Positions 171-17,150 of a stretch of 30,004 nucleotides of DNA are shown here, piece by piece. The position numbers and the translations under genes are program-made. The stretch is from a virus (Duplodnaviria; Heunggongvirae; Uroviricota; Caudoviricetes), in IMG/VR virus record IMGVR_UViG_2740892439_000007, positions 1 through 30,004 of that record; one strand, written 5' to 3'. Each line of letters begins with the position of its first letter. Positions within the stretch are counted from its first letter, which is position 1. The notes below the pieces were generated by a model. That model was not told the DNA's origin, searched no databases, and saw nothing but the letters and a program-made list of their open reading frames with translations.

Positions 171-248
171 TTGACCGAAATAGAGAGTTTGCACCTTTAC
201 GTTTAGCTTGCTCCCCTTATATGCCACATCACAATAAAGCCAATAAGA

Positions 249-261
249 AAACAACTTGTTT
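249..261. promoter_or_regulatory. Operator-like palindrome AAACAA-C-TTGTTT (perfect) upstream of CDS 280-846
   Basis: 6-1-6 perfect inverted repeat 19 nt upstream of the ATG; member of a family recurring at least 12 times in the window. Confidence 0.6.
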
Positions 262-279
262 AAGCATTAAGGAAAACAC

Positions 280-846
280 ATGTGCGAGAAATGCAAAGCA
301 ATAGCTGATGAACAAAACGCCCTATTCGAAGAAATGGATGCTAATGAACTTGTCAAAATGTTAGCCATTCTTCGAGGAATAGAAGACGTTTCCATATTTG
401 AGAGACTGTTTACAATACTTAATTTTAATTCCACCTTTGAAGAGCCAACTCAGATTGTAGCTTTGGCACACCATTTCGGTGTTCATTACCTTGCTGAAAA
501 AGAGAGAGCTGATAAGTTGCAAGCGACTTTGGATATGGTGAGCGAGACTCAAGGAACTGATGACGGTAACAAAAGTGAGACGATTATTGCCAGCAAAGAT
601 CGTGAAATTGCCGGGCTTAAATCCTCTCTAACGATGTTGATGTCTGCAATTAACCTTATGTCTTCTAAAGCAGGTTATAAAATGCCATCACTAAACAGCG
701 ACGATCCGATGGCCGTTCGCCAGCTTTTAGGTGCAATGGCCGACCAGCTCGACGACACAAAGAGTCGCCTTGAAGACATGATGCGGGAGCTCACGCATCG
801 CCATGACTTGAATAAGCAGCCGCACAAAACGCAATACGCACTCTAA
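280..846 (+). CDS. Hypothetical protein (188 aa)
   Basis: ORF with ATG start and upstream aagga RBS; own operator upstream and intrinsic terminator downstream. Confidence 0.7.
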   Translation: MCEKCKAIADEQNALFEEMDANELVKMLAILRGIEDVSIFERLFTILNFNSTFEEPTQIVALAHHFGVHYLAEKERADKLQATLDMVSETQGTDDGNKSETIIASKDREIAGLKSSLTMLMSAINLMSSKAGYKMPSLNSDDPMAVRQLLGAMADQLDDTKSRLEDMMRELTHRHDLNKQPHKTQYAL

Positions 847-863
847 TACTGCACCAGTCGACA

Positions 864-885
864 GGGGGCGAAAGCCCCCATTTTT
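864..885 (+). terminator. Rho-independent terminator (gggggc gaaa gccccc + TTTTT)
   Basis: 6-bp GC stem, GAAA tetraloop, then T5 immediately after the stop of CDS 280-846. Confidence 0.75.
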
Positions 886-940
886 ACGCCTTAAATCTGC
901 TGTAACGCCTATGAATGCAGCTTTTATGCCTTTTCAAGTT

Positions 941-975
941 TGCGATAATTACACCAATCAGAAAACAAATTATTT
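941..975 (+). promoter_or_regulatory. Extended -10 promoter (TGCGATAAT, 941-949) followed by operator AAACAA-A-TTATTT (963-975)
   Basis: Cassette ttgcgataat(t/a)acaccaa...agaaaacaa is repeated almost verbatim at 13999, 15441 and 15929. Confidence 0.6.
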
Positions 976-987
976 AATGGTGTAATT

Positions 988-2673
988 ATGAATACAGCCC
1001 TTTCCATCAGCGACGATGCCAGCTCAAACACGGCTATCGACTATCGTCAGGAAATGAATGTCATCCACGAAATCGTGGCCGAGTGCGAGAAAGAGATCGC
1101 CTTCATGTATCAGGTACACGACTTCGTTTATGGCGACGAACGCCACAACATGATTAATCGCCTGCTGAGACTAAACCATCGACCAGATGAAGATCGCTCG
1201 CGTTTAAATCGAGGTTGGTTGGATAAAGTCGATCTGGAATGGGTGAAACAGAATATTTGGGCCGAGTACTGGAGGAAGGTCACGGACATGACTAACGTTT
1301 TGCTGATCATGCCAGCTTCCCGTCGAGATGAGTGGCGCGAGCAGTTTATAGAGGGCAAACAGGAAGTCATCAAAACTGACAGAACCGGCTACCAGATGAA
1401 GGTTAAAGAGTTCGTTGGTGTACCGGAGTTCAAAGCAGAAACGGTCATACCCACGATGCTTAATTTGCTGAATGACAGGCACAAATATCTCTCTGAGCGC
1501 GTGTATGGCTTGTTTAAGGCGCTGAGTCCTGCGCACAAGACAAATAAGACAAACGGTTTCAGCGAGCGTCTGATAATCGCTGACTGCATTTCTGATTTCT
1601 GGCGGGACAGCGTTAGCGTGAACTATCGCAAAGAGGACTACATCGACGATCTGCGTGTCTTGCTTCATTTCTTCGCGCACAAAGAATTTATTACCATCAA
1701 CCGCACTGCTGAGGTGCTATCAGCTGCGTATCGGGCAAACGACTGCCAGACCGGTGACTGGATGAACGTCGATGGAAATCTGATGCGCGTGAAGATGTTC
1801 AAGAACGGCAACGTTCACTTTGAAATACATCCTGACGTGGCCTGGAAGTTGAATGAGGTGCTGGCTTACAGTATGCCTGCTGCAATTCCCGCGCCATGCC
1901 GAACTGCGCCAAAAACACGGGCACCAAAGCAGTTCGGGTTAATCCAGAAGACGATCTCCGTGCCGGTTCGCACTGCGCTTCGTGACGGGCGATTGAGCAA
2001 AGACAAAGGCGTATGGTACTTCTCTGATTCAGCTCTCCAGAAGTCGCAGGTGGAAGAGCTTGAGCGCACACTGAGCTTCATTGGCGGCGTGCAGGAGAAA
2101 AAGCACTGGCAGTTCCCGTATGACATCGGCCATACGCTAAATACGATTGTGGCTACCGGTTTAATACCGGATACAAAATCACACCAGTTCTACCCTACCC
2201 CACGCTTGATTGCTGAGTACGTTGCCAGAGCCACTGAATTGAAGCCTGGTGAGAAGCTGCTGGAGCCTCAAGCCGGACGTGGGGATCTTCTGGCCTATAT
2301 TAACGCCGATCTGGAAGATGTTACCTGCATAGAAATCGCACCTCTCTTCGCTGATATCCTGCGTGGAAAAGGGTATACGAACACGATTTGCTGCGACTTC
2401 ATAAAGTGGTCTGAGGACAACGCAGGTTATCAGTTCGACAAAATCGTTATGAACCCGCCGTACTCGCTTGGTCGTCATAGAGAGCACACGCTGGCTGCGC
2501 TGGGGCATCTGAAAGTCGGCGGGCGTCTTGTAGCAGTATTGCCGGGCACTGCGCCAATACTGGACTGGATGACGATGGATAATTACGTTTATGCCAGAGG
2601 GAAGTCGTTTACCAACGAGTTTGAAGATACCGGGATCACAGTCAGCGTATACGTTTTCAAACGCGTTAAATGA
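988..2673 (+). CDS. SAM-dependent amino-methyltransferase (probably DNA N6-adenine or N4-cytosine) with a roughly 400-aa N-terminal domain of unknown function
   Basis: C-terminal region has an LEPQAGRGDLL motif-I-like SAM-binding segment followed by NPPY (motif IV); the N-terminal 400 aa match nothing I recognise. Confidence 0.7.
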   Translation: MNTALSISDDASSNTAIDYRQEMNVIHEIVAECEKEIAFMYQVHDFVYGDERHNMINRLLRLNHRPDEDRSRLNRGWLDKVDLEWVKQNIWAEYWRKVTDMTNVLLIMPASRRDEWREQFIEGKQEVIKTDRTGYQMKVKEFVGVPEFKAETVIPTMLNLLNDRHKYLSERVYGLFKALSPAHKTNKTNGFSERLIIADCISDFWRDSVSVNYRKEDYIDDLRVLLHFFAHKEFITINRTAEVLSAAYRANDCQTGDWMNVDGNLMRVKMFKNGNVHFEIHPDVAWKLNEVLAYSMPAAIPAPCRTAPKTRAPKQFGLIQKTISVPVRTALRDGRLSKDKGVWYFSDSALQKSQVEELERTLSFIGGVQEKKHWQFPYDIGHTLNTIVATGLIPDTKSHQFYPTPRLIAEYVARATELKPGEKLLEPQAGRGDLLAYINADLEDVTCIEIAPLFADILRGKGYTNTICCDFIKWSEDNAGYQFDKIVMNPPYSLGRHREHTLAALGHLKVGGRLVAVLPGTAPILDWMTMDNYVYARGKSFTNEFEDTGITVSVYVFKRVK

Positions 2674-2734
2674 TAGGTAAATACTTACTTAATTTGTGTA
2701 AGAATGTAGTAACTAAACGATAAGAGAAAAACAC

Positions 2735-3439
2735 ATGAACAACCTCCAGTTAGAGCATTTTAACGTCACAGGCCATTCTGATTTTCCTTTCAAGTTTACA
2801 TTGAAAGGTTATGCAGAGGATGCGGTAGGCCAGATTATTATTGATAAAGGCATCGTTAAGTTTGAGGGGAATTTTGATGAATCCGCGAAAACATTCATAG
2901 ACTTCGTTGCCAAACGTTGGAGCGAGCAATGGAAAGACATGGAAAAGCGCGCTAGTGAGTTTGATCGGTTCATGGATGCAATGGATACAGCAAAAGAGGC
3001 TCTTGCTGCCGGGACTCCGTTAGATCTTGAGTCACTTTTCAACGGCGAAGTGGCCTCTGCGATGTTCGCCACCATGTTCGCGGGTGAGTTCGTCCGCAGC
3101 GGTGCCAAAAACTACCTTGAGCTGGATTACAACGTCCCTGCAATTGGCGATTTCGTCGTTACCATCCAACGCAAAGAAGGTAAGACGCCAGGTGAACGCG
3201 TCGCAGAGCTTGAGGCCGTTGTGGATCAGCGTAACGGAGAGTGTGACCGTTTGATCAACGAGCTTCATGCACTTCGGGAAGAAAGAATATGTGCGGGTAG
3301 CAATACACGTAATGCAGCGGATATCTACTTCCAGTTAGTTGAGGAATGCCAGATTCCACCAGGTGGCTCTCTTGTCGATTACGTCAGACATTTAATGGCG
3401 GAAGTTAACTCCAGCCATAAAGATGGTGAGGTGCGCTGA
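2735..3439 (+). CDS. Hypothetical protein (234 aa)
   Basis: ORF with ATG preceded by gagaaaaacac leader similar to those of 280 and 3958; first gene of a coupled operon. Confidence 0.65.
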   Translation: MNNLQLEHFNVTGHSDFPFKFTLKGYAEDAVGQIIIDKGIVKFEGNFDESAKTFIDFVAKRWSEQWKDMEKRASEFDRFMDAMDTAKEALAAGTPLDLESLFNGEVASAMFATMFAGEFVRSGAKNYLELDYNVPAIGDFVVTIQRKEGKTPGERVAELEAVVDQRNGECDRLINELHALREERICAGSNTRNAADIYFQLVEECQIPPGGSLVDYVRHLMAEVNSSHKDGEVR

Positions 3440-3819
3440 TGTTTGGCATTGACGCACAGCGTATAGCCGCTTTTGCAAAAAGCCCTCTTGATAATCCCTT
3501 GTCTCGTAGTGAGCAAATGGAGCTGGCAAGGCTTTTTATTCACATTCAAAAACAGGCAGACGTTTTCAATAACATGCCTGATCAACCTATTCTGGATGGT
3601 CACATCCAGATGGTCATTAACAGTCATGAGAAAGGCTGGGCTGCAATCGTCCCCTGCACAATTACATACAAGTTGGCGAAAGAGGTTCAAGAGTTTCGAA
3701 AAGCCAGTGTCGAATCGGAGTCTACCAAAGCCGCAATAAACACTCTTATTCGCATGGGGTTCACATGGACCGGTGGAGCCTACTGGCAAGCACCTCACCC
3801 CATTTTATCCGGCAATTAG
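3439..3819 (+). CDS. Hypothetical protein (126 aa)
   Basis: ATGA start/stop overlap with the upstream gene (translational coupling). Confidence 0.6.
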   Translation: MFGIDAQRIAAFAKSPLDNPLSRSEQMELARLFIHIQKQADVFNNMPDQPILDGHIQMVINSHEKGWAAIVPCTITYKLAKEVQEFRKASVESESTKAAINTLIRMGFTWTGGAYWQAPHPILSGN

Positions 3820-3850
3820 ACGCTACAAATCCTTCGGCATGAATAAATAA

Positions 3851-3869
3851 AGGCCATAAGTTGTGGCCT
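3851..3869 (+). terminator. Hairpin (aggcca taagttg tggcct), weak terminator candidate
   Basis: 6-bp stem after the stop of CDS 3439-3819; T-rich tract only 8 nt further downstream. Confidence 0.35.
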
Positions 3870-3870
3870 T

Positions 3871-3883
3871 AAATAAATTGTTT
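3871..3883. promoter_or_regulatory. Operator-like palindrome AAATAA-A-TTGTTT (1 mismatch), within a 30-bp block also found at 10736
   Basis: aaattgttttctaccttttcttatttg here versus caatttgttttctaccttttgttgattg at 10738. Confidence 0.5.
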
Positions 3884-3957
3884 TCTACCTTTTCTTATTT
3901 GTGAAAATAAACCAGCACTTGGTAGTGCTTATGTAACAGCAAAGAAGAGAAAAACAC

Positions 3958-4200
3958 ATGAGTAACAAAATCGAAAACCCCGTAGTTCTCATTCACAAGC
4001 GTGAGAACCCCGACTCCTATGCGGTGGCGATCACCAATGGGAGTCACGATTATTACGATGGTCTGCTAATGGCCTCAGTGTCGCCTGATGAGGCAGACAA
4101 CTCTTTTGCCGTCTTCGCTATGGTTGGTTACTACATGGCTGCCGAAATTGAGAAGTTGCGGGCGCAGAGAGACGCATTAGCGGCGGAGAATGCAGCCTGA
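3958..4200 (+). CDS. Hypothetical protein (80 aa)
   Basis: ORF with ATG and gagaaaaacac leader. Confidence 0.55.
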   Translation: MSNKIENPVVLIHKRENPDSYAVAITNGSHDYYDGLLMASVSPDEADNSFAVFAMVGYYMAAEIEKLRAQRDALAAENAA

Positions 4201-4226
4201 AAGAATCTGAGCGAGCATTCGATGCG

Positions 4227-4412
4227 ATGTGTGCCGAGGAACACGGAGATAATTGGGTTAGCGAATTAACGGAGACTCCAGCCACCGATGCTTTTCTGGC
4301 TGAAGTACGTGCGCAGGGCGTGGAGATGTTTGCTGAGTGCGCATACACACTTGAACATCATGATCACGCAGTAGCTTTTGCCGCTGAGCTTCGTACAGGA
4401 AATAAACAGTGA
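4227..4412 (+). CDS. Hypothetical protein (61 aa)
   Basis: ORF with ATG start; stop overlaps the next gene start (GTGA). Confidence 0.45.
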   Translation: MCAEEHGDNWVSELTETPATDAFLAEVRAQGVEMFAECAYTLEHHDHAVAFAAELRTGNKQ

Positions 4413-5134
4413 ATGAGATTTACTACCTGACGTTACGTGAACGTTATTCACCAAAACCAGCGCCTAAATGCTCTGTTTGTGACGAGGAAATGTCAATACA
4501 GCGCATATCTGGAGCACATGTTGTTTATGCCTGTTCCGGTGAGGGTGATGACGGATATTTTAAGATAGGGCGTACTTTTGCAGACGAACATTATGAAAAA
4601 TCACGCGTAACAGTAGTTGATGATAGTGATCCCGATGTGATTGCACTGCTGGACGAACTGGATAAAAGACAGCAACACATCCGACGTCTTGAGCAGGAGA
4701 ACGTAGAGATGGCCCTAACGCTTGAGAAACTGCGTGTTGAGCTGGAGACCGTTAAACAGCGGGAAAAGGATCTGTTTATGGAAAATGTTCGACTTAAGTC
4801 AGGTATAGCAGGTCTGATACACCTCGGTATTCGATATGCGGATGTCGAAGTCATGAAAATAGCTGGTGATGCCCAGCTTTCTACTCCCTGTACTGACAGC
4901 ATCATAAACAGTATTGCATCAGGCGTTTTCACCAAAGAGGTCAGCATTATGAGAACAGTAGAAGTTCGCGCTGAAGATGTAACCCCAGGTGATGTGGTCA
5001 TAACATCTAAAGGCAAACGATGTGCGGTTAAATCTTTCTGGATGGAAGGTGACAAAGTGACTCTGTTCGGTACGGATGGTTCCGAAACGGATTATGACTA
5101 CGACGAATTACTTGTTGTTGAGAGAGCTATCTAA
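4409..5134 (+). CDS. Hypothetical protein (241 aa) with an N-terminal Cys cluster (CSVC...C) and a predicted coiled coil
   Basis: ORF from GTG overlapping the upstream stop; sequence features only, no family recognised. Confidence 0.6.
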   Translation: MNEIYYLTLRERYSPKPAPKCSVCDEEMSIQRISGAHVVYACSGEGDDGYFKIGRTFADEHYEKSRVTVVDDSDPDVIALLDELDKRQQHIRRLEQENVEMALTLEKLRVELETVKQREKDLFMENVRLKSGIAGLIHLGIRYADVEVMKIAGDAQLSTPCTDSIINSIASGVFTKEVSIMRTVEVRAEDVTPGDVVITSKGKRCAVKSFWMEGDKVTLFGTDGSETDYDYDELLVVERAI

Positions 5135-5829
5135 TGACCACCGTTAACAATAAGAAATGCTACCCAAGCGAGCAATATCTTAATGAGCTGATCACCAACA
5201 TAGAGTTTGCTGCAAGGACACCTGTTGAAGTCGTGAGAGCGATGGCAGCAGAGCTACAGAAGCGGCGCGAAGCTGATAGTGCAGAACCTGTAAGCCAAAC
5301 TTACAAGTTGCCAGTTAATACACCTTGCCAAGATGCGCCAGCCCATATCTGGCTGCAAACGGCTGGAGTATGGCCAGAAGATAGCGAGTTAAGCGAATTA
5401 ACGTGGTGCAGCCACAATCAGCACCATGATGACACGCTATATGTTCGAGCTGACCTTGTGAATGGCAACTATCCGGATATTCCGGATAGTTCGGTGCCAG
5501 CGCCAGGAAAGGGCGTCACCGGTGAACGTATCCGCATTAAGCCGCATGTTTATCGCGAACTGGTTAACCGCCTCCACGATACAGCGATCAAGTGTGCTGG
5601 CACCCAGCAATTACGAGAAAAAATTAGCCGTGTTTTGGGCGACGTTATTACGCCAGATCATCATAAACAAGCCGAGAAAAGTGACCTGGAAAGGTGTCAC
5701 CTTGAGGCGGCATTAAATATTAAGCCGGGACATACGCTTGGCATTATCGATGCTCTGTTGGTTCATAAGATGGCCAGGGCTTTATTGCCGCTGGTGGATG
5801 CTGGCGATACAAGCGAGGGTGAAGTATGA
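5134..5829 (+). CDS. Hypothetical protein (231 aa)
   Basis: TAATG overlap with the upstream gene. Confidence 0.6.
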   Translation: MTTVNNKKCYPSEQYLNELITNIEFAARTPVEVVRAMAAELQKRREADSAEPVSQTYKLPVNTPCQDAPAHIWLQTAGVWPEDSELSELTWCSHNQHHDDTLYVRADLVNGNYPDIPDSSVPAPGKGVTGERIRIKPHVYRELVNRLHDTAIKCAGTQQLREKISRVLGDVITPDHHKQAEKSDLERCHLEAALNIKPGHTLGIIDALLVHKMARALLPLVDAGDTSEGEV

Positions 5830-6188
5830 GAGTTGCAGATCACATCAAAAACCTTGAAAGAATTATCGAAAACGGTGAACTCTTAAGAGATCAGATGAGA
5901 CGCACGGCAGAAGTCAGAGAGGCGATAATTCGCAGTCAGGCTGGTAAATTAAAGCAATTGTCAGAGATTAACACGCTATACAAGAACAGACGTAACCGGG
6001 TGGCGCTGCGGCTTCAGAAAGCACGTAATGAAATTAAATTGGTGGAGGCAAAACTGAAAAAACAGATCCAGCGTTACGATCAGCAAGATGCTTTTTATGC
6101 CGCCATCAAGGCGGTTGCTAATGAAATAGGCATCTGGAAGTTGCTGGTGGAGGAAGCAAAGACGAAGTTAAATGCCAACGAAAGCTGA
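5826..6188 (+). CDS. Hypothetical basic coiled-coil protein (120 aa)
   Basis: ATGA overlap with the upstream gene; last gene of the coupled operon. Confidence 0.6.
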   Translation: MRVADHIKNLERIIENGELLRDQMRRTAEVREAIIRSQAGKLKQLSEINTLYKNRRNRVALRLQKARNEIKLVEAKLKKQIQRYDQQDAFYAAIKAVANEIGIWKLLVEEAKTKLNANES

Positions 6189-6261
6189 ACTACAGGTGCC
6201 CACCAGCATACAGAAAATGATTGTTTCCACATCAAGGAGATTTTAATGTTTCACTGAAACA

Positions 6262-6399
6262 TTAAGTAAGCCAGTGCATAATTCCATTTTTTACTGATCT
6301 TAAAAGCAAAATCAAAACGATGATGAGGATAATAGCCAGAATCTGGCTAATAACAGGCGCATCTAAAAATGCACTCAGGAACTGAAAAAAAGCGTTCAT
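6262..6399 (-). CDS. Small hydrophobic protein candidate (45 aa, MNAFFQFLSAFLDAPVISQILAIILIIVLILLLRSVKNGIMHWLT)
   Basis: ORF below the size cutoff of the supplied track; single predicted transmembrane segment; weak RBS. Confidence 0.3.
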   Translation of the reverse strand: MNAFFQFLSAFLDAPVISQILAIILIIVLILLLRSVKNGIMHWLT

Positions 6400-6441
6400 T
6401 CAGGTGGTTCCTTGTCAAATGTAAAGGTGCACTTGCTCACG

Positions 6442-6470
6442 TTGACGTAGAAACCCAACCCCTATATAGT
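6442..6470 (+). promoter_or_regulatory. Sigma-70-like promoter candidate TTGACG-N17-TATAGT
   Basis: Near-consensus -35 and -10 with 17-bp spacer; no convincing CDS downstream; iteron-like motifs and a hairpin (6555-6580) follow. Confidence 0.35.
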
Positions 6471-6516
6471 TGGATTCGGTGAATGAAAGTCGTTAACGTG
6501 AGCTTACGGCACATGT

Positions 6517-6541
6517 TTTCGGAAAAACATCAGGGAACGGC
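6517..6541. repeat. Iteron-like motifs (ttttcggaaaaacatc aggGAACGGC) related to the arrays at 13548 and 16514
   Basis: Shares the block GAAAAACATC-GGGAA with 16606-16625. Confidence 0.4.
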
Positions 6542-6896
6542 TAATTCCTTGATGCGGGTGGGGTCTGTAATGCAGACCCTATCTATTAACGTCATGATTG
6601 CATCTCAAATTTTCTCCTTATCTTCAATTAATCTACATTCATTTCATCTGTTAGCCACCACAATATGTAGAAAATGGCCCTCTTGCAAGTGCATAGCTTT
6701 GTGGATAACTCAGGAAGGAAAAAGTGGCTTTCGCGCACTTTAGACCGGACAAGGCGTTCGAAAAAGTCAATGGGAAGAAAAAATTTGTTAAAAATAACGT
6801 TTGTTTGAATTGTATATATTTATGCCTTTCAATAGTTAGCATCTTATTAACATCTTTTTTAAGAGATAGAGTTCAAAAATATATAGCTTCAACATA

Positions 6897-6916
6897 TACT
6901 GTATGTGTATACAGTA
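6897..6916. promoter_or_regulatory. LexA (SOS) box TACTGTATGTGTATACAGTA overlapping a TATACT -10
   Basis: Perfect CTGT-N8-ACAG dyad 17 nt upstream of the UmuD'-like start codon. Confidence 0.8.
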
Positions 6917-6932: not shown

Positions 6933-7322
6933 ATGGGCTTCCCTTCTCCTGCGGCGGATTATGCTGAGAGCCGTATTTCTCTTGATCAGCAGATAATTAG
7001 ACATCCTTCAGCGACCTACTTCATGAGGGCAGCTGATAGTCATCATCGTGAGGGAATATTACAGGGTGCATTGCTGGTGGTCGATTCCTCACTTACCCCG
7101 GTTGATGGTTCTCTGCTTGTATGCGCTCTGGATGGGGAATATCGCGTAAAAAGATACCGGAAGTACCCACGTCAGCATCTGGAGGATTTAAGAACCGGTA
7201 AGAAGGAAGCATTGCCAAAGGATGACGATGGATGCACGGGCAGCAATGCCGTGTTTGGTGTGATCACTCACATTATCAACGACGCAAGAAGTGGCGAGTT
7301 TGATGATTGTCCCGTGATGTAG
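6933..7322 (+). CDS. UmuD'-like S24 peptidase-family protein, encoded without the N-terminal cleavable arm (HumD-like)
   Basis: Begins M-GFPSPAADY, i.e. at the equivalent of the UmuD Cys24/Gly25 cleavage site; Ser (ADSH) and Lys (RVKR) of the catalytic dyad are present; no upstream in-frame start is available. Confidence 0.8.
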   Translation: MGFPSPAADYAESRISLDQQIIRHPSATYFMRAADSHHREGILQGALLVVDSSLTPVDGSLLVCALDGEYRVKRYRKYPRQHLEDLRTGKKEALPKDDDGCTGSNAVFGVITHIINDARSGEFDDCPVM

Positions 7323-7334
7323 GAGAACTGATTA

Positions 7335-7358
7335 GGCGGTGCAATGCACCGCCTTTTT
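7335..7358 (+). terminator. Rho-independent terminator (ggcggtgc aat gcaccgcc + TTTTT)
   Basis: 8-bp GC stem plus T5, 13 nt after the UmuD'-like stop and ending 2 nt before the mrp stop codon. Confidence 0.75.
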
Positions 7359-7359
7359 A

Positions 7360-8460
7360 TCACACTGCGCGGAATGCGATTTCGCCAGGTATTACTTCAC
7401 CTTGCCAATACATTTGGGCAGCAACGCGATCTGCGAGGTCACGATAAATAGCCGTAAATTCGCTATCTGGACGACTAATAACGGTTGGTGTTCCGTTATC
7501 CAGATCTTCACGAAGAGAGATATGAAGTGGCATTTGGCCTAACAACTGCGTGTTGTATTTCTCGGCCAGTTTCTGTGCGCCACCGGTGCCAAAAATTGGC
7601 TCGTGATGACCGCAGTTACTGCAAATATGCACACTCATGTTTTCGACGATACCCAGTACCGGCACTTCGACTTTTTCGAACATCACAATGCCTTTCTTCG
7701 CATCGATCAGCGCGATGTCTTGCGGCGTAGTTACCACAACCGCACCAGTTACAGGAATGTTCTGCGCCAGCGTCAACTGAATATCACCAGTGCCCGGCGG
7801 CATATCGAGAACGAGATAGTCCAGATCAGGCCATAGAGTTTCCTGCAACATCTGCATCAGCGCCTTGCTGGCCATCGGTCCACGCCACACCATTGCATTG
7901 TCGTCGGTGACCAGATAACCAATAGAGTTGGTTGCCAGGCCATGAGACATGATAGGTGCCATGTGAGTACCGTCAGGTGAGGTTGGACGTTGGTTTTCCG
8001 CTCCCAGCATGGTTGGAATTGATGGACCATAGATATCGGCATCCAAAATACCAACTTTCGCACCTTCAGCAGCCAACGCCAGTGCCAGGTTCACCGCCGT
8101 GGAGGATTTACCCACGCCGCCCTTGCCTGAGCTGACGGCGATAATGTTCTTAACGCCATTAATGCCTGGTTGGTTTTTGACGCGCTTAAGCGTGGCAATG
8201 TTGTACGACAGCTTCCAGTCAATAGCCTTTGCGCCAGTGATACGGAGCAGATCACCACTACATTGCTCTTTCAGGTCTTCAAAAGGCTTATTCCACACGA
8301 AAGGCATGATTAGTTCGACATGCAGTGTGTCATCCATCAACGCAACATGGTGTAACGCTTTAAGCGTAGTCAGGTTGTGTTTCAGGGTTGGGTGCTGAAA
8401 ATTAGCCAGCGTACCGGCTACCATTGCTCTCAGGGCATCCGGCGATTTGGACTCGCTCAT
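7360..8460 (-). CDS. apbC: Fe-S cluster carrier ATPase ApbC/Mrp
   Basis: 366-aa product with P-loop SSGKGGVGKS and C-terminal CxxC; near-identical to E. coli Mrp as recalled. Confidence 0.95.
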   Translation of the reverse strand: MSESKSPDALRAMVAGTLANFQHPTLKHNLTTLKALHHVALMDDTLHVELIMPFVWNKPFEDLKEQCSGDLLRITGAKAIDWKLSYNIATLKRVKNQPGINGVKNIIAVSSGKGGVGKSSTAVNLALALAAEGAKVGILDADIYGPSIPTMLGAENQRPTSPDGTHMAPIMSHGLATNSIGYLVTDDNAMVWRGPMASKALMQMLQETLWPDLDYLVLDMPPGTGDIQLTLAQNIPVTGAVVVTTPQDIALIDAKKGIVMFEKVEVPVLGIVENMSVHICSNCGHHEPIFGTGGAQKLAEKYNTQLLGQMPLHISLREDLDNGTPTVISRPDSEFTAIYRDLADRVAAQMYWQGEVIPGEIAFRAV

Positions 8461-8617
8461 CCCGTCTCCTTTATTTTAATTTGCGCAATTGTCGCCTTGT
8501 AGTGTACTCCAGCTACGACATTTAATCATTTATGAGAAATGCTGTTATCACATGGCAGACATAAGGCCATTTTGTTACTATCAAGCCCCTTTTCACTACA
8601 AAGAAGTAATGCCTACT

Positions 8618-10651
8618 ATGACCCAAGTCGCGAAGAAAATTCTGGTGACGTGCGCGCTGCCGTACGCTAACGGCTCAATCCACCTCGGCCATATGCTGGA
8701 GCACATCCAGGCTGATGTCTGGGTTCGTTACCAGCGAATGCGCGGCCACGAGGTTAATTTCATCTGTGCCGACGATGCCCACGGTACGCCGATCATGCTG
8801 AAAGCACAGCAGCTTGGTATCACACCGGAGCAGATGATTGGCGAAATGAGTCAGGAACACCAGACTGATTTCGCAGGCTTTAACATCAGCTATGACAACT
8901 ATCACTCGACGCACAGCGAAGAGAACCGTCAGTTGTCTGAGCTTATCTATACTCGCCTGAAAGAGAACGGTTTTATTAAAAACCGCACTATCTCTCAGTT
9001 GTACGACCCGGAAAAAGGCATGTTCCTGCCGGATCGTTTTGTAAAAGGCACCTGCCCGAAATGTAAAGCGCCAGATCAATACGGCGATAACTGTGAAGTC
9101 TGCGGCGCGACCTACAGCCCGACTGAACTGATTGAGCCGAAATCGGTAGTTTCTGGCGCTACGCCGGTAATGCGTGATTCTGAACACTTCTTCTTTGATC
9201 TGCCCTCTTTCAGCGAAATGTTGCAGGCATGGACCCGCAGCGGCGCGTTGCAGGAGCAGGTGGCGAACAAAATGCAGGAATGGTTTGAATCCGGCCTGCA
9301 ACAGTGGGATATCTCCCGCGATGCGCCTTACTTCGGTTTTGAAATTCCGAACGCGCCGGGCAAATATTTCTACGTCTGGCTGGACGCGCCGATTGGCTAC
9401 ATGGGTTCCTTCAAGAATCTGTGCGACAAGCGCGGCGATACCACCAGCTTCGATGAATACTGGAAGAAAGACTCCACCGCCGAGCTGTACCACTTCATCG
9501 GTAAAGATATTGTTTACTTCCACAGCCTGTTCTGGCCTGCCATGCTGGAAGGCAGCAACTTCCGCAAGCCGACCAACCTGTTTGTTCACGGCTATGTGAC
9601 GGTGAACGGCGCGAAGATGTCCAAGTCTCGCGGCACCTTTATTAAAGCCAGCACCTGGCTGAATCATTTTGACGCCGACAGCCTGCGTTACTACTACGCT
9701 GCGAAACTCTCTTCGCGCATTGATGATATCGATCTCAACCTGGAGGATTTCGTTCAGCGCGTGAATGCCGATATCGTGAACAAAGTGGTTAACCTGGCCT
9801 CCCGTAATGCAGGCTTTATCAACAAGCGTTTTGACGGCGTGCTGGCAAGCGAACTGGCTGACCCGCAACTGTACAAAACCTTTACTGATGCCGCTGAAGT
9901 GATTGGCGAAGCATGGGAAAGCCGCGAATTTGGTAAAGCTATCCGTGAAATCATGGCATTGGCTGACCTGGCTAACCGCTATGTCGATGAACAGGCTCCG
10001 TGGGTGGTGGCGAAGCAGGAAGGACGCGATGCCGATCTGCAGGCGATTTGCTCTATGGGCATTAACCTGTTCCGCGTGCTGATGACGTACCTGAAGCCGG
10101 TACTGCCGAAACTGACTGAACGTGCAGAAGCATTCCTGAATACAGAACTGACCTGGGATGGTATCCAGCAACCGCTGCTGGGCCATAAAGTGAATCCGTT
10201 CAAGGCACTGTATAACCGTATCGATATGAAGCAGGTTGAAGCACTGGTGGAAGCATCTAAAGAAGAAGTGAAAGCAGCTGCCACGCCAGTAACTGGCCCG
10301 CTGGCAGATGATCCGATTCAGGAAACCATCACCTTTGATGACTTCGCCAAAGTTGACCTGCGCGTGGCGCTGATTGAAAACGCAGAGTTTGTAGAAGGTT
10401 CTGACAAACTGCTTCGCCTGACGCTGGATCTCGGTGGTGAAAAGCGTAATGTCTTCTCAGGCATCCGTTCCGCTTATCCAGATCCACAGGCACTGATTGG
10501 TCGTCACACCATTATGGTGGCTAACCTGGCACCACGTAAAATGCGCTTCGGTATCTCTGAAGGCATGGTGATGGCTGCTGGCCCTGGCGGGAAAGATATC
10601 TTCCTGTTAAGCCCGGATGTCGGTGCTAAACCTGGCCACCAGGTTAAGTAA
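8618..10651 (+). CDS. metG: Methionine--tRNA ligase
   Basis: [25 protein letters not shown] (HIGH motif), KMSKS, C-terminal tRNA-binding domain; near-identical to E. coli MetG as recalled; the track ORF start at 8489 is an upstream alternative codon. Confidence 0.97.
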
Positions 10652-10735: not shown

Positions 10736-10799
10736 AAACAATTTGTTTTCTACCTTTTGTTGATTGAGATAATAAGCCACATAAGAAAACAAATTGTTT
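10736..10799 (+). promoter_or_regulatory. Promoter with two perfect operators (10736-10748 AAACAA-T-TTGTTT; 10787-10799 AAACAA-A-TTGTTT) flanking an extended -10 TGAGATAAT (10765-10773)
   Basis: Operator centres 51 bp apart, the same spacing as at 15412/15463. Confidence 0.65.
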
Positions 10800-10812
10800 C
10801 GGAGTGGTTGAA

Positions 10813-12482: not shown

Positions 12483-12616
12483 CTTAATCAATCAGTTGAT
12501 AATGGCGGTCACAATTTGATTCTTTTCTATAAGAACCCGTTGATCGCCACTACTCCCCTCCCATACCAGCAATCACATCATTAAATATCAATAGGTTAAC
12601 GTTGTTTATACCAATA

Positions 12617-13330
12617 AGAAAACAACTAAATAACAGATCAACGAAACATCAACGCTTTCTCCCGATTTGGTCTAAAAAATTGACGTTATCACACATCACT
12701 TCTTATACCCGTAATTCTACGCAGCAGATAGCGCCACAGCGTCCAAATTTCACCACAAACGACTCAACACACTACCAACAAAAACACACGCTCAAAATCG
12801 CTCCCGTTGCGTTACACAACCATATAAACAACTTATTTTCAGGCATAACAAAACAACTAAATAACACATATGACATTCCCCAAAACAACCAACCTCTTTA
12901 TGGCAGGCTACCGAAAAGACCCACCTCTTCTCCCCAGGCTACCGGACAACCAACCTAACTTTCACAGGCAATCCGAAAACATTCATACGCGCGATACCCA
13001 CGACACGCCATTCCCCAAACAGCGAAGAAACACCAGAATCACTGAAACCCCAACGAAGCCTGTTACCGCAAGGATTCTCTCAATCCCAAAAGACACGAAA
13101 CATAACAATCACGGGAAACGCCATTACCCAATACACGAATAACTACAAAAGCCCTTCACGCACTCCAGACAAACAACTCAAACACAATAACGAAAGCAAT
13201 CGCCCACCTGCCATTACTCCATACACGGAGAAGAACAATCACCAAAACGACGAGAACACCCCATAGAAGAACCACCGCAAAACGAACGAAACCATTTACA
13301 CCGACAGAGAGAACAACACACCCAATTCAC
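12617..13330 (+). other. About 0.7-kb noncoding tract with strong A+C strand bias (roughly 75 percent A+C on the plus strand) and internal repeats
   Basis: Hand counts on two 60-nt lines gave 75 and 77 percent A+C; track ORFs here are low-complexity P/T/N/Q/H-rich translations. Confidence 0.7.
12888..12981 (+). repeat. Three tandem ~30-bp direct repeats (CCACCTCTT...CCAGGCTACCG family)
   Basis: Units at about 12888-12920, 12921-12950, 12951-12981; same family as 15811-15900. Confidence 0.6.
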
Positions 13331-13700: not shown

Positions 13701-13998
13701 GAGGGAGAGTTGCGGCTACCCACCTGTAATGTGCGGGAAGAAGAGAGGCGCTCACGTGCAGGCGGACTAACTTACCGTTGGACTCCCTCTGAATGCCCAA
13801 CTACAGCGTAATTGTGCCAGAGAGTCAGCGGGTCACAATCGATTTCAGTAGGTTTTCGGGGAGAGGATTATTCTGCCCACCAGCCACTTTCGGCCACCAA
13901 ATCAGAATAATGTAAAAAGTGTACTCGGTACTGAACCTGAAAACTCACTGCCAAAACCACATTCACCGGAATAAAATCCTTTTTCGCCTGTGCGTTAT

Positions 13999-14033
13999 TG
14001 CGATAATAACACCAACAAGAAAACATGTTGTTT
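13999..14033 (+). promoter_or_regulatory. Extended -10 promoter TGCGATAAT (13999-14007) plus operator AAACAT-G-TTGTTT (14021-14033)
   Basis: ttgcgataataacaccaacaagaaaaca is identical to 15440-15467. Confidence 0.65.
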
Positions 14034-14045
14034 AAGGATTGATTT

Positions 14046-14375: not shown

Positions 14376-14481
14376 TCCCAACCAAAGCCAGCATTGCTGG
14401 CTTAATTTCTCTATAGCCGCAGGGAAGAACCTACATATCGCTCATGCACCTGATCAATATGCTTTGTAGCCGTTTTCTTAC

Positions 14482-14517
14482 TGGTATCATTTACGCCATT
14501 GAGAAAACAAGTTGTTT
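14482..14517 (+). promoter_or_regulatory. Extended -10 TGGTATCAT (14482-14490) plus perfect operator AAACAA-G-TTGTTT (14505-14517)
   Basis: Same architecture as the other cassettes. Confidence 0.6.
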
Positions 14518-14528
14518 ACGGAGTTGTG

Positions 14529-14840
14529 ATGAAAAAATCATTGGTTCTTGGTCTGGACAAAGACCAGAAGAGAAAAGAGAAGCCTGCGCTGGTTGCTCAA
14601 TTAACTTTGCTGGACATCGTTGCCAATGGAACCTCTATTCGTCTGTTCCGTGAAACAGCGGTATCTTTCGATAAAAACACCTTTACTCGTTATGTAATGA
14701 ATGTTCGTCGCCAGCGTGGAAAAGGCTGGGTGGCATTTCAAAGAATGTGGCCGGAACATCAGCTCGAACTGGCTTTGATGGAAGTTAACCGCGTGGCCCA
14801 GCAAGAAATTCAGAGAGCATCAGTGATGGCAATAGCCTGA
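14529..14840 (+). CDS. Hypothetical protein (103 aa)
   Basis: ATG at 14529 with GGAG 5 nt upstream; the track start at 14499 lies inside the operator. Confidence 0.6.
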   Translation: MKKSLVLGLDKDQKRKEKPALVAQLTLLDIVANGTSIRLFRETAVSFDKNTFTRYVMNVRRQRGKGWVAFQRMWPEHQLELALMEVNRVAQQEIQRASVMAIA

Positions 14841-15411: not shown

Positions 15412-15475
15412 AAACAAGTTGTTTTATGCCTATCCTACATTGCGATAATAACACCAACAAGAAAACAAGTTATTA
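15412..15475 (+). promoter_or_regulatory. Promoter with operators at 15412-15424 (perfect) and 15463-15475 (degenerate) flanking extended -10 TGCGATAAT (15441-15449)
   Basis: Operator centres 51 bp apart, as at 10736/10787. Confidence 0.65.
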
Positions 15476-15494
15476 ACGCAGTGAGGAAACGCAC

Positions 15495-15776
15495 ATGACC
15501 GATTTCACCATCTCCCCGAAAGAAGAAAACGTATGGCTGGAATCCTGGCTTGACCTGTCGCCGGCCGAGCAGAAAGAAATGGATCACGTCGAACCGGACG
15601 AACAAACCAGCTCCCGCTTCTTCCATTATCAGGATAGCGTTTATGACATTGCCGATTTCATGCGCGATGACCGCTTCCCGGAATGGCACGCCGGCTATCC
15701 ACTGAATGCCTTCGCTATGCTGATGATCCGCGTGACAGATTCAGGCGACGCCATCGACATCGGATTACTTCATTGA
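15495..15776 (+). CDS. Hypothetical small acidic protein (93 aa)
   Basis: ATG with gagga RBS; Asp/Glu-rich. Confidence 0.65.
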   Translation: MTDFTISPKEENVWLESWLDLSPAEQKEMDHVEPDEQTSSRFFHYQDSVYDIADFMRDDRFPEWHAGYPLNAFAMLMIRVTDSGDAIDIGLLH

Positions 15777-15810: not shown

Positions 15811-15900
15811 TACCACCTGCTTTCCCGCAGGCTAAAAACACCCACCTCTTACCGCCAGGCTACCGAAGCACCCACCTGTTCCCGTCCGGCTACCGCAACT
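15811..15900 (+). repeat. Three exact-period 30-bp tandem direct repeats (cCCACCTnnTTnCCnnCaGGCTAcc...)
   Basis: Units at 15811-15840, 15841-15870, 15871-15900; related to 12888-12981. Confidence 0.65.
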
Positions 15901-15928
15901 TTCCACTTTGACGCCTTATTCGTACAAC

Positions 15929-15961
15929 GATAATTAATACCAACAAGAAAACAATTTGTTA
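15929..15961 (+). promoter_or_regulatory. -10 GATAAT (15929-15934) plus operator AAACAA-T-TTGTTA (15949-15961)
   Basis: Same cassette family. Confidence 0.55.
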
Positions 15962-15981
15962 TTTACGATAAGGAATTAATC

Positions 15982-16629: not shown

Positions 16630-16717
16630 GGAATCCAACCAGCGGTTGTCGGACAGGTGAGCGGGGAAAATCATGATGACTTTCGTCGCCTGAGACATCC
16701 AGATTTCTTTCGTAGCG

Positions 16718-16735
16718 TAATCACATATGTGATTA
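16718..16735. promoter_or_regulatory. Perfect 18-bp palindrome TAATCACATATGTGATTA
   Basis: Exact dyad; a further TGTGATTATGTGA...TCAC repeat lies immediately downstream. Confidence 0.4.
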
Positions 16736-16878
16736 AGTGGTGTGATTATGTGAAAAATCACGCGCACATAATACGCGAGCGGATACGGAACAAAACAAAA
16801 TGCCGATCCGCGCCGACAAATAAACGCGGATCATAAAGCAAGACTAAAAGCCAATGATTAACCATACTCTATAGCGCA

Positions 16879-17085
16879 ATATAACGCGTTTTAAGCGCGT
16901 TAATGTGTTAAGTAATGGGTATGTACTGGTAAGGATATAAAAGCGCGTCTATGGCGTTATTTTGGCGCTTATTTTTATGTTGTTGGAGTGAGTTAAAGAC
17001 AATAAAAAACGCGCTAATGATGGCGCGTTATGGTGGGAGTATTGGAAACGAAAAAAGCGCCCATAGTGGGCGCTCGATTTTATTT
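16879..17085. repeat. Array of four related GC-core hairpins, each preceded by an A-run (about 16879, 16936, 17002, 17057)
   Basis: Inverted repeats taacgcg/cgcgtta, aacgcgc/gcgcgtt and gcgccca/tgggcgc are exact; the second unit is imperfect; the last is followed by a T-rich tract. Confidence 0.5.
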
Positions 17086-17150
17086 GTGTAAACTGATTTT
17101 AAATCCCATTTCTACAAACGCTTTTAACATTAAAAATATATCAGCGTCGT

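Follow-up and report, generated by a model that had tools for sequence, protein, structure and literature searches.

The gene at positions 988 to 2673 on the plus strand of the 30,004-nt stretch of phage DNA analysed here in its full length (hereafter, the window) codes, in our slightly better than even estimation, for an orphan SAM-dependent N6-adenine DNA methyltransferase with which an SSU5-like phage-plasmid protects its DNA from host restriction. It is an ATG-start ORF of 561 amino acids (coordinates include the stop codon), in which a C-terminal methyltransferase domain is preceded by a conserved module known as DUF4942. The gene is real, intact and strongly conserved; it is already catalogued, and represents an orphan phage methylase of an ordinary kind, from a family that is experimentally untouched.

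We sought to place the window among known mobile elements by comparing its nt 700-3000 with sequenced genomes. The segment is 81-88% identical to Klebsiella phage-plasmids, and its 99-100% identity to non-mobilizable E. coli plasmids of ~110 kb, such as pECOH89 (NC_023916), together with 89% identity to Salmonella phage SSU5, identifies the window as part of a phage-plasmid of the SSU5/pHCM2/pECOH89 type. The SSU5 orthologue of the gene, SSU5_095, is annotated as “DNA methyltransferase”, and the RefSeq name of its product is “DUF4942 domain-containing protein”. Of 5,426 complete E. coli genomes, 251 carry the gene, which is nearly always plasmid-borne there, and E. coli phage-plasmids have copies that are 99-100% identical to it. 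A protospacer lies within the gene at positions 1663-1695, where 33 nt are identical to a spacer that E. coli strain AST85 carries in a type I-E CRISPR array on its chromosome. In one sub-lineage the gene is truncated and a type I restriction-modification (R-M) system is found in its place, with the plasmid being retained, indicating that the methylase gene is dispensable for plasmid maintenance.

The catalytic motifs NPPY, motif I and FYPTP all fall within the last ~166 residues, so that the original prediction was correct in confining them to the C-terminal end. Residues 396-561 (positions 2173-2670, plus strand) make up a SAM-dependent N6-adenine methyltransferase catalytic domain in which motif I precedes NPPY, i.e. 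one of gamma order, and an alignment of 24 homologues, the most distant of which is 33% identical, shows the conservation of each motif. The FYPTP, or “TP”, motif (residues 401-405; 2188-2202) caps the helix preceding motif I; Q400, F401, Y402, P403 and P405 are invariant, and are followed in the model by a helix at residues 406-416. Motif I, LEPQAGRGD (residues 425-433; 2260-2286), follows strand 1 as the SAM-binding loop; it has P427, A429, G430 and G432 as its invariant residues, and its counterpart in M.TaqI aligns with it. Motif IV, NPPY (residues 489-492; 2452-2463), forms the catalytic loop after strand 4 and aligns with the NPPY of M.TaqI; N489, P490 and P491 are invariant, and residue 492 is either Y or F.

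AlphaFold2, when run on the 24-homologue alignment, yielded a confident model with a mean pLDDT of 82.9 and a pTM of 0.66 (the models reached pLDDT 82.9 and 87.4), and folded residues 396-561 into a seven-stranded Rossmann-type domain, the only part of the protein matched by solved methyltransferases in structure comparisons. Upstream of it the model and the alignment delineate three more parts. Residues 1-80 (988-1227, plus strand) are mostly helical, partly disordered and modelled with low confidence at residues 1-16 and 63-82; they constitute the least conserved part of the family, with most of the distant homologues aligning only from about residue 80-92 onwards. Residues 81-330 (1228-1977, plus strand) comprise the conserved DUF4942 module, a mixed alpha/beta structure extending to residue 300, and a basic linker (residues 301-330, pI 11.7). 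A small alpha/beta domain, possibly winged-helix-like, occupies residues 331-395 (1978-2172, plus strand) directly before the catalytic domain. In both the alignment and the model the protein stops at strand 7 of the Rossmann fold, at residue 561, with no C-terminal target-recognition domain, and all 24 aligned proteins end at most a few residues past the last strand.

In its motif I, the order of motif I and NPP(Y/F), the TP motif with its helix, and the overall fold, the protein is the same as the EcoKI/TaqI-like (gamma-class) enzymes. It differs from M.TaqI, M.BseCI and CamA in lacking their C-terminal recognition domain, from type I HsdM in lacking an HsdS partner, and from all EcoKI/TaqI-like enzymes in having a 395-residue N-terminal part that includes DUF4942; the sequence similarity to them is marginal, with the best PDB match at E 5.5e-4.

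The N-terminal 400 residues had originally been described as unrecognised. A domain search, however, finds Pfam DUF4942 (PF13708) at residues 140-295 (positions 1405-1872, plus strand) at E 1.7e-20, scoring 74 bits where the cut-off is 25; DUF4942 matches are present in all 24 aligned homologues. The entire protein also matches PHROG 6263, “DNA methyltransferase”, from end to end (E 2.4e-299). Membership in both is clear; both are catalogue entries, and the name adds no mechanism. A literature search covering DUF4942, the SSU5/pHCM2 methyltransferases and methylomes returned incidental mentions only, and no paper characterising the family.

The view of this protein as a methyltransferase “fused” to an additional domain also proved to be an overstatement. 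A HMMER search with residues 1-395 alone yielded 613 representative clusters (50% identity level; E<=1e-3), and nearly all of the 150 clusters listed among them are 500-590 amino acids in length, the match extending from about residue 80-90 to residue 395. A scan of one genome per species recovered relatives in 278 genomes, from the Gamma-, Beta- and Alphaproteobacteria, and 36 residues between W95 and R305 are invariant in the 24 homologues, down to 33% identity. Given this architecture, fixed in the 613 clusters, and the invariance among the 24 homologues, the two-part layout is the ancestral and standard one of a single widespread family rather than a recent fusion.

Every part of the protein is under strong purifying selection, with an overall dN/dS of 0.05-0.09 against the orthologues from SSU5, Kluyvera and Klebsiella. 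The most constrained part is not the catalytic domain (0.07-0.10) but residues 81-330, including DUF4942 (0.02-0.04), indicating that the N-terminal module is functionally essential to the protein. In this respect it is unlike the fast-changing recognition domains of specificity-switching enzymes. Comparisons with known DNA-recognition domains gave no significant match, the module is not markedly basic (pI 7.9), and searches of PDB sequences with either the single protein or the family profile gave matches confined to the catalytic domain. An anti-restriction role had also been suggested for this part of the protein, and none of our analyses provided evidence for it.

Such a degree of constraint on the N-terminal module, exceeding that on the catalytic domain, might be expected if the protein were bifunctional, combining a DNA methyltransferase with a DUF4942 module that has a separate activity, for example as a binder or inhibitor of a host defence protein or as a sensor of some host factor. 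This possibility would also accommodate the invariant polar residues (H183, T185, N186, D221, R223, D262, H277, H281, N289 and R305), the absence of a relative among known DNA-binding folds, and the independent recombination of the N- and C-terminal halves, as in P0044 with its E. coli-like front and Klebsiella-like back. Nevertheless, the two parts hardly ever occur separately, as nearly all of the 150 clusters listed out of 613 are full-length; the catalytic domain, having no recognition element of its own, would need the N-terminus for substrate binding; and the module matches no known anti-defence or defence family. We regard a separate activity as decidedly unlikely.

The layout of a methyltransferase preceded by a large N-terminal part is also reminiscent of MmeI or Eco57I-like enzymes, and could be taken to indicate a single-chain restriction-modification enzyme of the type IIG/IIL kind, with the N-terminal part acting as a nuclease. 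A weak PADLOC match to REase_MTase_IIG (E 0.0012) and one phage record naming its homologue “RE endonuclease” point in the same direction. However, that match spans residues 456-521, i.e. the catalytic domain only, the C-terminal recognition domain of such enzymes is absent, and no nuclease family or fold could be found in the N-terminus with Pfam, PADLOC or the PDB profile search, making a built-in nuclease highly improbable.

The substrate was the subject of a caveat in the original prediction, and the caveat was fair: the best structural match is METTL5, an rRNA m6A enzyme, and the Pfam matches of the C-terminal part are split among N6_Mtase, RrnaAD and MTS, all of which are below threshold for the query. 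Across the 24 family members the MTS model is touched by 11, N6_Mtase (PF02384) by five and RrnaAD by two, and the excess of MTS over N6_Mtase counts against the reading as a DNA methylase. Fold and Pfam thus cannot decide between DNA and RNA. Other evidence leads us to consider DNA the probable substrate. First, the stronger profile matches are to DNA methylases: the family profile, when compared with the PDB, gave M.TaqI as the best match (E 5.5e-4), followed by an HsdM-like enzyme and KsgA (~5e-3), and PADLOC gave mad2 (1e-15) and MTase_II (2e-10), both confined to residues ~394-523. Second, the arrangement QF(Y)PTP, helix, NPP(Y/F) constitutes the signature of EcoKI/TaqI-like DNA adenine methylases, the DarB-type domain included (Iyer et al., PMC5512222), and the TP motif, helix and NPPY of the present protein fit it. 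Third, the same domain type is found in 213 phage records, including a “DarB-like antirestriction protein”. Fourth, the genomic company fits, as distant homologues in Variovorax and on an enterobacterial chromosome reside in the early regions of lambdoid prophages, just after CI/Cro-like genes and adjoining other orphan methylases.

These findings also bear on the possibility that the protein is an N6-adenine methyltransferase of rRNA or tRNA, with DUF4942 serving to bind RNA or the ribosome, so that host translation would be modified during infection or lysogeny. In addition to the profile matches, the EcoKI/TaqI-like signature, the domain shared with DNA-acting DarB-like proteins and the DNA methylases co-occurring in prophage early regions, it is opposed by the weakness of all rRNA-family matches, which score 12-19 bits against cut-offs of 24-350. 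Thus, RrnaAD reaches 12.3 bits against a curated cut-off of 24, ksgA 15.6 against 171, and the Erm models 11.7-16.6 against 212-350, the Erm and KsgA matches being the only ones obtained in NCBIfam and lying far under cut-off. An RNA substrate is therefore quite unlikely, in spite of the METTL5 match.

Comparison with other methylases of mobile elements shows that the catalytic domain is of the same sub-type as that of the DarB-like polyvalent antirestriction proteins carried by phages and plasmids. PHROG families of phage proteins of 1,400-3,900 amino acids match residues 396-522 (E 1e-14 to 1e-19), and in tblastn the catalytic domain is matched by gp081 of Serratia phage Parlo, the 3,764-aa “DarB-like antirestriction protein”; full-length family members are found in Pseudomonas and Aeromonas phages. 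With phage P1 DarB and Parlo gp081 the protein shares the catalytic-domain sub-type, the TP and NPP(Y/F) signature and the carriage on mobile elements, but the catalytic domain is all that they have in common. DarB-like proteins are very large and injected, with the methyltransferase fused C-terminally to an SF2 (SWI2/SNF2) helicase, whereas the protein described here has 561 amino acids and no helicase, is of a soluble type, is encoded in an accessory region, and shows no sign of virion packaging.

A relationship to M.EcoGIX and M.BceJIII was considered and rejected. These are single-strand-specific orphan m6A enzymes of the beta class, with DPPY, from conjugative leading regions (PMC7736820), as opposed to the gamma order, NPPY and DUF4942 front of the present protein, and the gene described here is carried by a non-conjugative phage-plasmid. 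Since they protect incoming mobile DNA from restriction (PMC7736820), they constitute a functional precedent only. The same phage-plasmid carries, ~4 kb upstream of the window, a second adenine methylase, a Dam-like “phage N-6-adenine-methyltransferase”. It is likewise a phage-borne orphan, but belongs to another family and is only 197 amino acids long, about a third of the length of the DUF4942 protein, whose additional conserved module it lacks.

We found no restriction partner, in agreement with the original prediction. None of the seven flanking ORFs belongs to a nuclease or defence family according to Pfam, PHROGs and PADLOC: apart from an Ead/Ea22-like protein and a UmuD-like peptidase, their products have no assigned function. 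A PDB search with the two immediate neighbours gave no match either. No cognate endonuclease, as would be characteristic of a type II R-M system, was found beside the methylase, and the annotation of the nearest annotated plasmid lists no endonuclease over the corresponding 30 kb. To extend the comparison to the family, all ORFs within 6 kb were clustered across 64 related loci. The methylase family itself was recovered in 62 of them, and the commonest neighbour family, the S24 repressor, in only seven; an HsdS-like gene was found neither among the flanking ORFs nor as a conserved gene in the 64 loci. With no conserved neighbour, the enzyme is an orphan at the level of the family.

Orphan status by itself would also be consistent with a DNA adenine methyltransferase whose function is not protective, but consists in placing epigenetic marks for replication, packaging or expression of the element, or for host genes in lysogens. 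Dam acts in packaging of phage P1. The presence of a Dam-like methylase on the same element might make a second protective enzyme redundant, and a recognition module that is nearly invariant across the family would fit a single fixed target and a housekeeping role. Yet the sub-lineage which lost the intact gene to a type I R-M system keeps its plasmid, the domain type is linked with antirestriction proteins, and the gene is set among accessory genes, not those for replication or packaging. On balance, we find a purely epigenetic role rather unlikely, and continue to favour protection of the phage-plasmid from host restriction.

The methylase had been credited with its own operator-controlled promoter. 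The upstream gene (280-846) is ended by an intrinsic-terminator-like hairpin at positions 864-886 on the plus strand (GGGGGC GAAA GCCCCC followed by ATTTTTA), which is kept in SSU5, Kluyvera and Klebsiella pJN2-26. It is followed at positions 921-987, on the plus strand, by a promoter-like leader cassette of ~65 nt, TTTTATGCC...TGcGATAAT...ACACCAATCAGAAAACAAATTATTTAATGGTG, in which TGcGATAAT at 941-949 resembles an extended -10 element and GGTG at 979-982 a ribosome-binding box. The cassette is found at least eight times on the plus strand of the window (positions 237, 951, 10775, 12608, 14009, 14493, 15451 and 15937), each time just upstream of an ORF, and even the orthologues of Xenorhabdus and Morganella, whose proteins are only 46-48% identical, are preceded by it. 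Its conservation and position suggest a promoter role, with a predicted transcription start near nt 955, although a scan for consensus sigma-70 promoters flagged nothing upstream of the methylase gene. An operator-like palindrome, AAACAAATTATTT, with one mismatch to the consensus AAACAAnTTGTTT, occupies positions 963-975, past the -10-like box and ahead of the start codon; the window contains 12 such sites with at most one mismatch, as compared with 0.29 expected, and none of 100 shuffles reached 12. Overall, the terminator, the cassette and the palindrome support the claim in substance and together fit a separately controlled methylase unit. As no terminator follows the methylase gene, its transcript may extend into the next two ORFs, 2735-3439 and 3439-3819.

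The same region contains a perfect 12-nt inverted repeat at positions 945-989 on the plus strand, ATAATTACACCA / TGGTGTAATTAT, with arms at 945-956 and 978-989 separated by a 21-nt gap. The second of these arms spans the ribosome-binding-like box and runs two bases into the start codon, and folding as RNA (-12.2 kcal/mol, z -3.5) would hide the start codon. We rejected it as a conserved operator or translational hairpin, as SSU5, pJN2-26, Xenorhabdus and Morganella all lack it; missing at these orthologous loci, the repeat is probably either incidental or confined to the E. coli lineage.

The reading that we favour could operate as follows. At least seven other accessory genes have the cassette and the operator-like site in common with the methylase gene, which is probably activated along with them. 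The C-terminal 166 residues would then act as a minimal EcoKI/TaqI-like domain, binding SAM and methylating the N6 of a flipped-out adenine. Lacking a C-terminal recognition domain, the enzyme would have to rely on its conserved N-terminal part to bind the substrate and choose the target, and the substrate may be held and selected by DUF4942 together with the basic linker and the small domain at residues 331-395. Methylation of the element's own DNA, along with that of its host, would protect the phage-plasmid from restriction upon entering new hosts. The near-invariance of the N-terminal module counts against a sequence-selecting role, since the recognition domains of sequence-specific methylases are variable. 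More speculatively, and with little likelihood in our view, DUF4942 may represent a new kind of substrate-recognition module replacing the C-terminal one of the gamma class, with a very short or relaxed specificity, or with an action coupled to DNA entry or replication. Were this the case, the enzyme would shield the element from a wide range of restriction systems simultaneously, and would be functionally like M.EcoGII or M.EcoGIX, while having evolved independently of them; with relaxed specificity, it might also be useful as a tool enzyme.

Members of the DUF4942-methyltransferase family are widely distributed among the prophages and islands of proteobacteria, and the target motif, once defined, would close an annotation gap and permit methylome motifs to be assigned in many strains. 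SSU5-like phage-plasmids are common in clinical Enterobacteriaceae, and can bear resistance genes, as pECOH89 carries CTX-M-15 (PMC3999498). A methylase letting such phage-plasmids cross restriction barriers would help to set their host range.

At least eight near-identical promoter/leader cassettes are present in the window (237-300, 921-987, 10740-10810, 12575-12640, 13975-14045, 14460-14540, 15415-15495 and 15900-15980), all of them on the + strand and each placed immediately 5′ of an accessory ORF. Every cassette contains the palindrome AAACAAnTTGTTT, which occurs at 12 sites in the window versus 0.29 expected, with further copies beyond the cassettes at 3871, 12826, 24812 and 24837. At some promoters a second copy lies over the -35 region, as at 10736 and 10787, and at 15412 beside the cassette at 15451. 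The cassette set looks like a regulon, in which the palindrome would be the common putative operator for a repressor. At the methylase gene, one arm of a perfect 12-nt inverted repeat (945-956) overlaps the -10-like box, and the other (978-989) reaches over the ribosome-binding-like box into the methylase start codon; the predicted RNA fold of the repeat has an energy of -12.2 kcal/mol (z -3.5), and the repeat is restricted to the E. coli lineage.

Elsewhere in the window, an 18-bp perfect palindrome, TAATCACATATGTGATTA, followed by GTGGTGTGATTAT (16718-16749), lies within a stretch rich in short repeats (16680-17100), and is possibly a further operator or a plasmid-control region. Two short ORFs, 3958-4200 and 4227-4412, correspond to the first and last parts, respectively, of a single PHROG family, phrog_492; the nearest plasmid carries a single 456-nt gene where the window has the two ORFs (3958-4412), and the gene in the window seems to have been broken in two by a frameshift or stop. 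Host-like cargo genes occupy window positions 6933-10651, inside the phage-plasmid, namely a UmuD-like S24 peptidase (6933-7322), apbC (7360-8460, - strand) and metG, a full-length methionyl-tRNA synthetase gene (8489-10651).

A small Dam-like “phage N-6-adenine-methyltransferase” of 197 aa is also encoded on this phage-plasmid, roughly 4 kb upstream of where the window begins (7741-8334 in database locus L001); together with the methylase at 988-2673, it gives the element two orphan adenine methylases. The methylase gene itself is matched perfectly, over 33 nt (window 1663-1695; L008 1501-1533), by a spacer of E. coli AST85 located in a chromosomal type I-E CRISPR array adjoining iap and cas2e. 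Across the E. coli genome set the gene has nine chromosomal matches, of which this spacer is the one inspected.

Alignment of 24 methylase homologues revealed that one of them, P0044, is a mosaic when compared with P0008 and P0080: its N-terminal ~300 residues are of the E. coli/Citrobacter type, while its C-terminal part is of the Klebsiella type. This mosaic pattern points to recombination between the DUF4942 and catalytic parts.

In a sub-lineage of these phage-plasmids, the methylase gene is broken off after ~157 codons, and the segment extending to the UmuD-like gene (window ~1460-6900) is exchanged for hsdR, hsdS and hsdM, which lie on the opposite strand and make up a complete type I restriction-modification system, with a DNA polymerase III theta gene in addition. 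The exchanged region is found at 3501-7481 of L007 (p2018-11-1BCC_2) and 9001-15574 of L093 (p54214_3), both E. coli plasmids, and the methylase gene is only partial in 64 of the 251 E. coli records that carry it. The methylase locus is a swap site, at which an orphan methylase alternates with a defence system.
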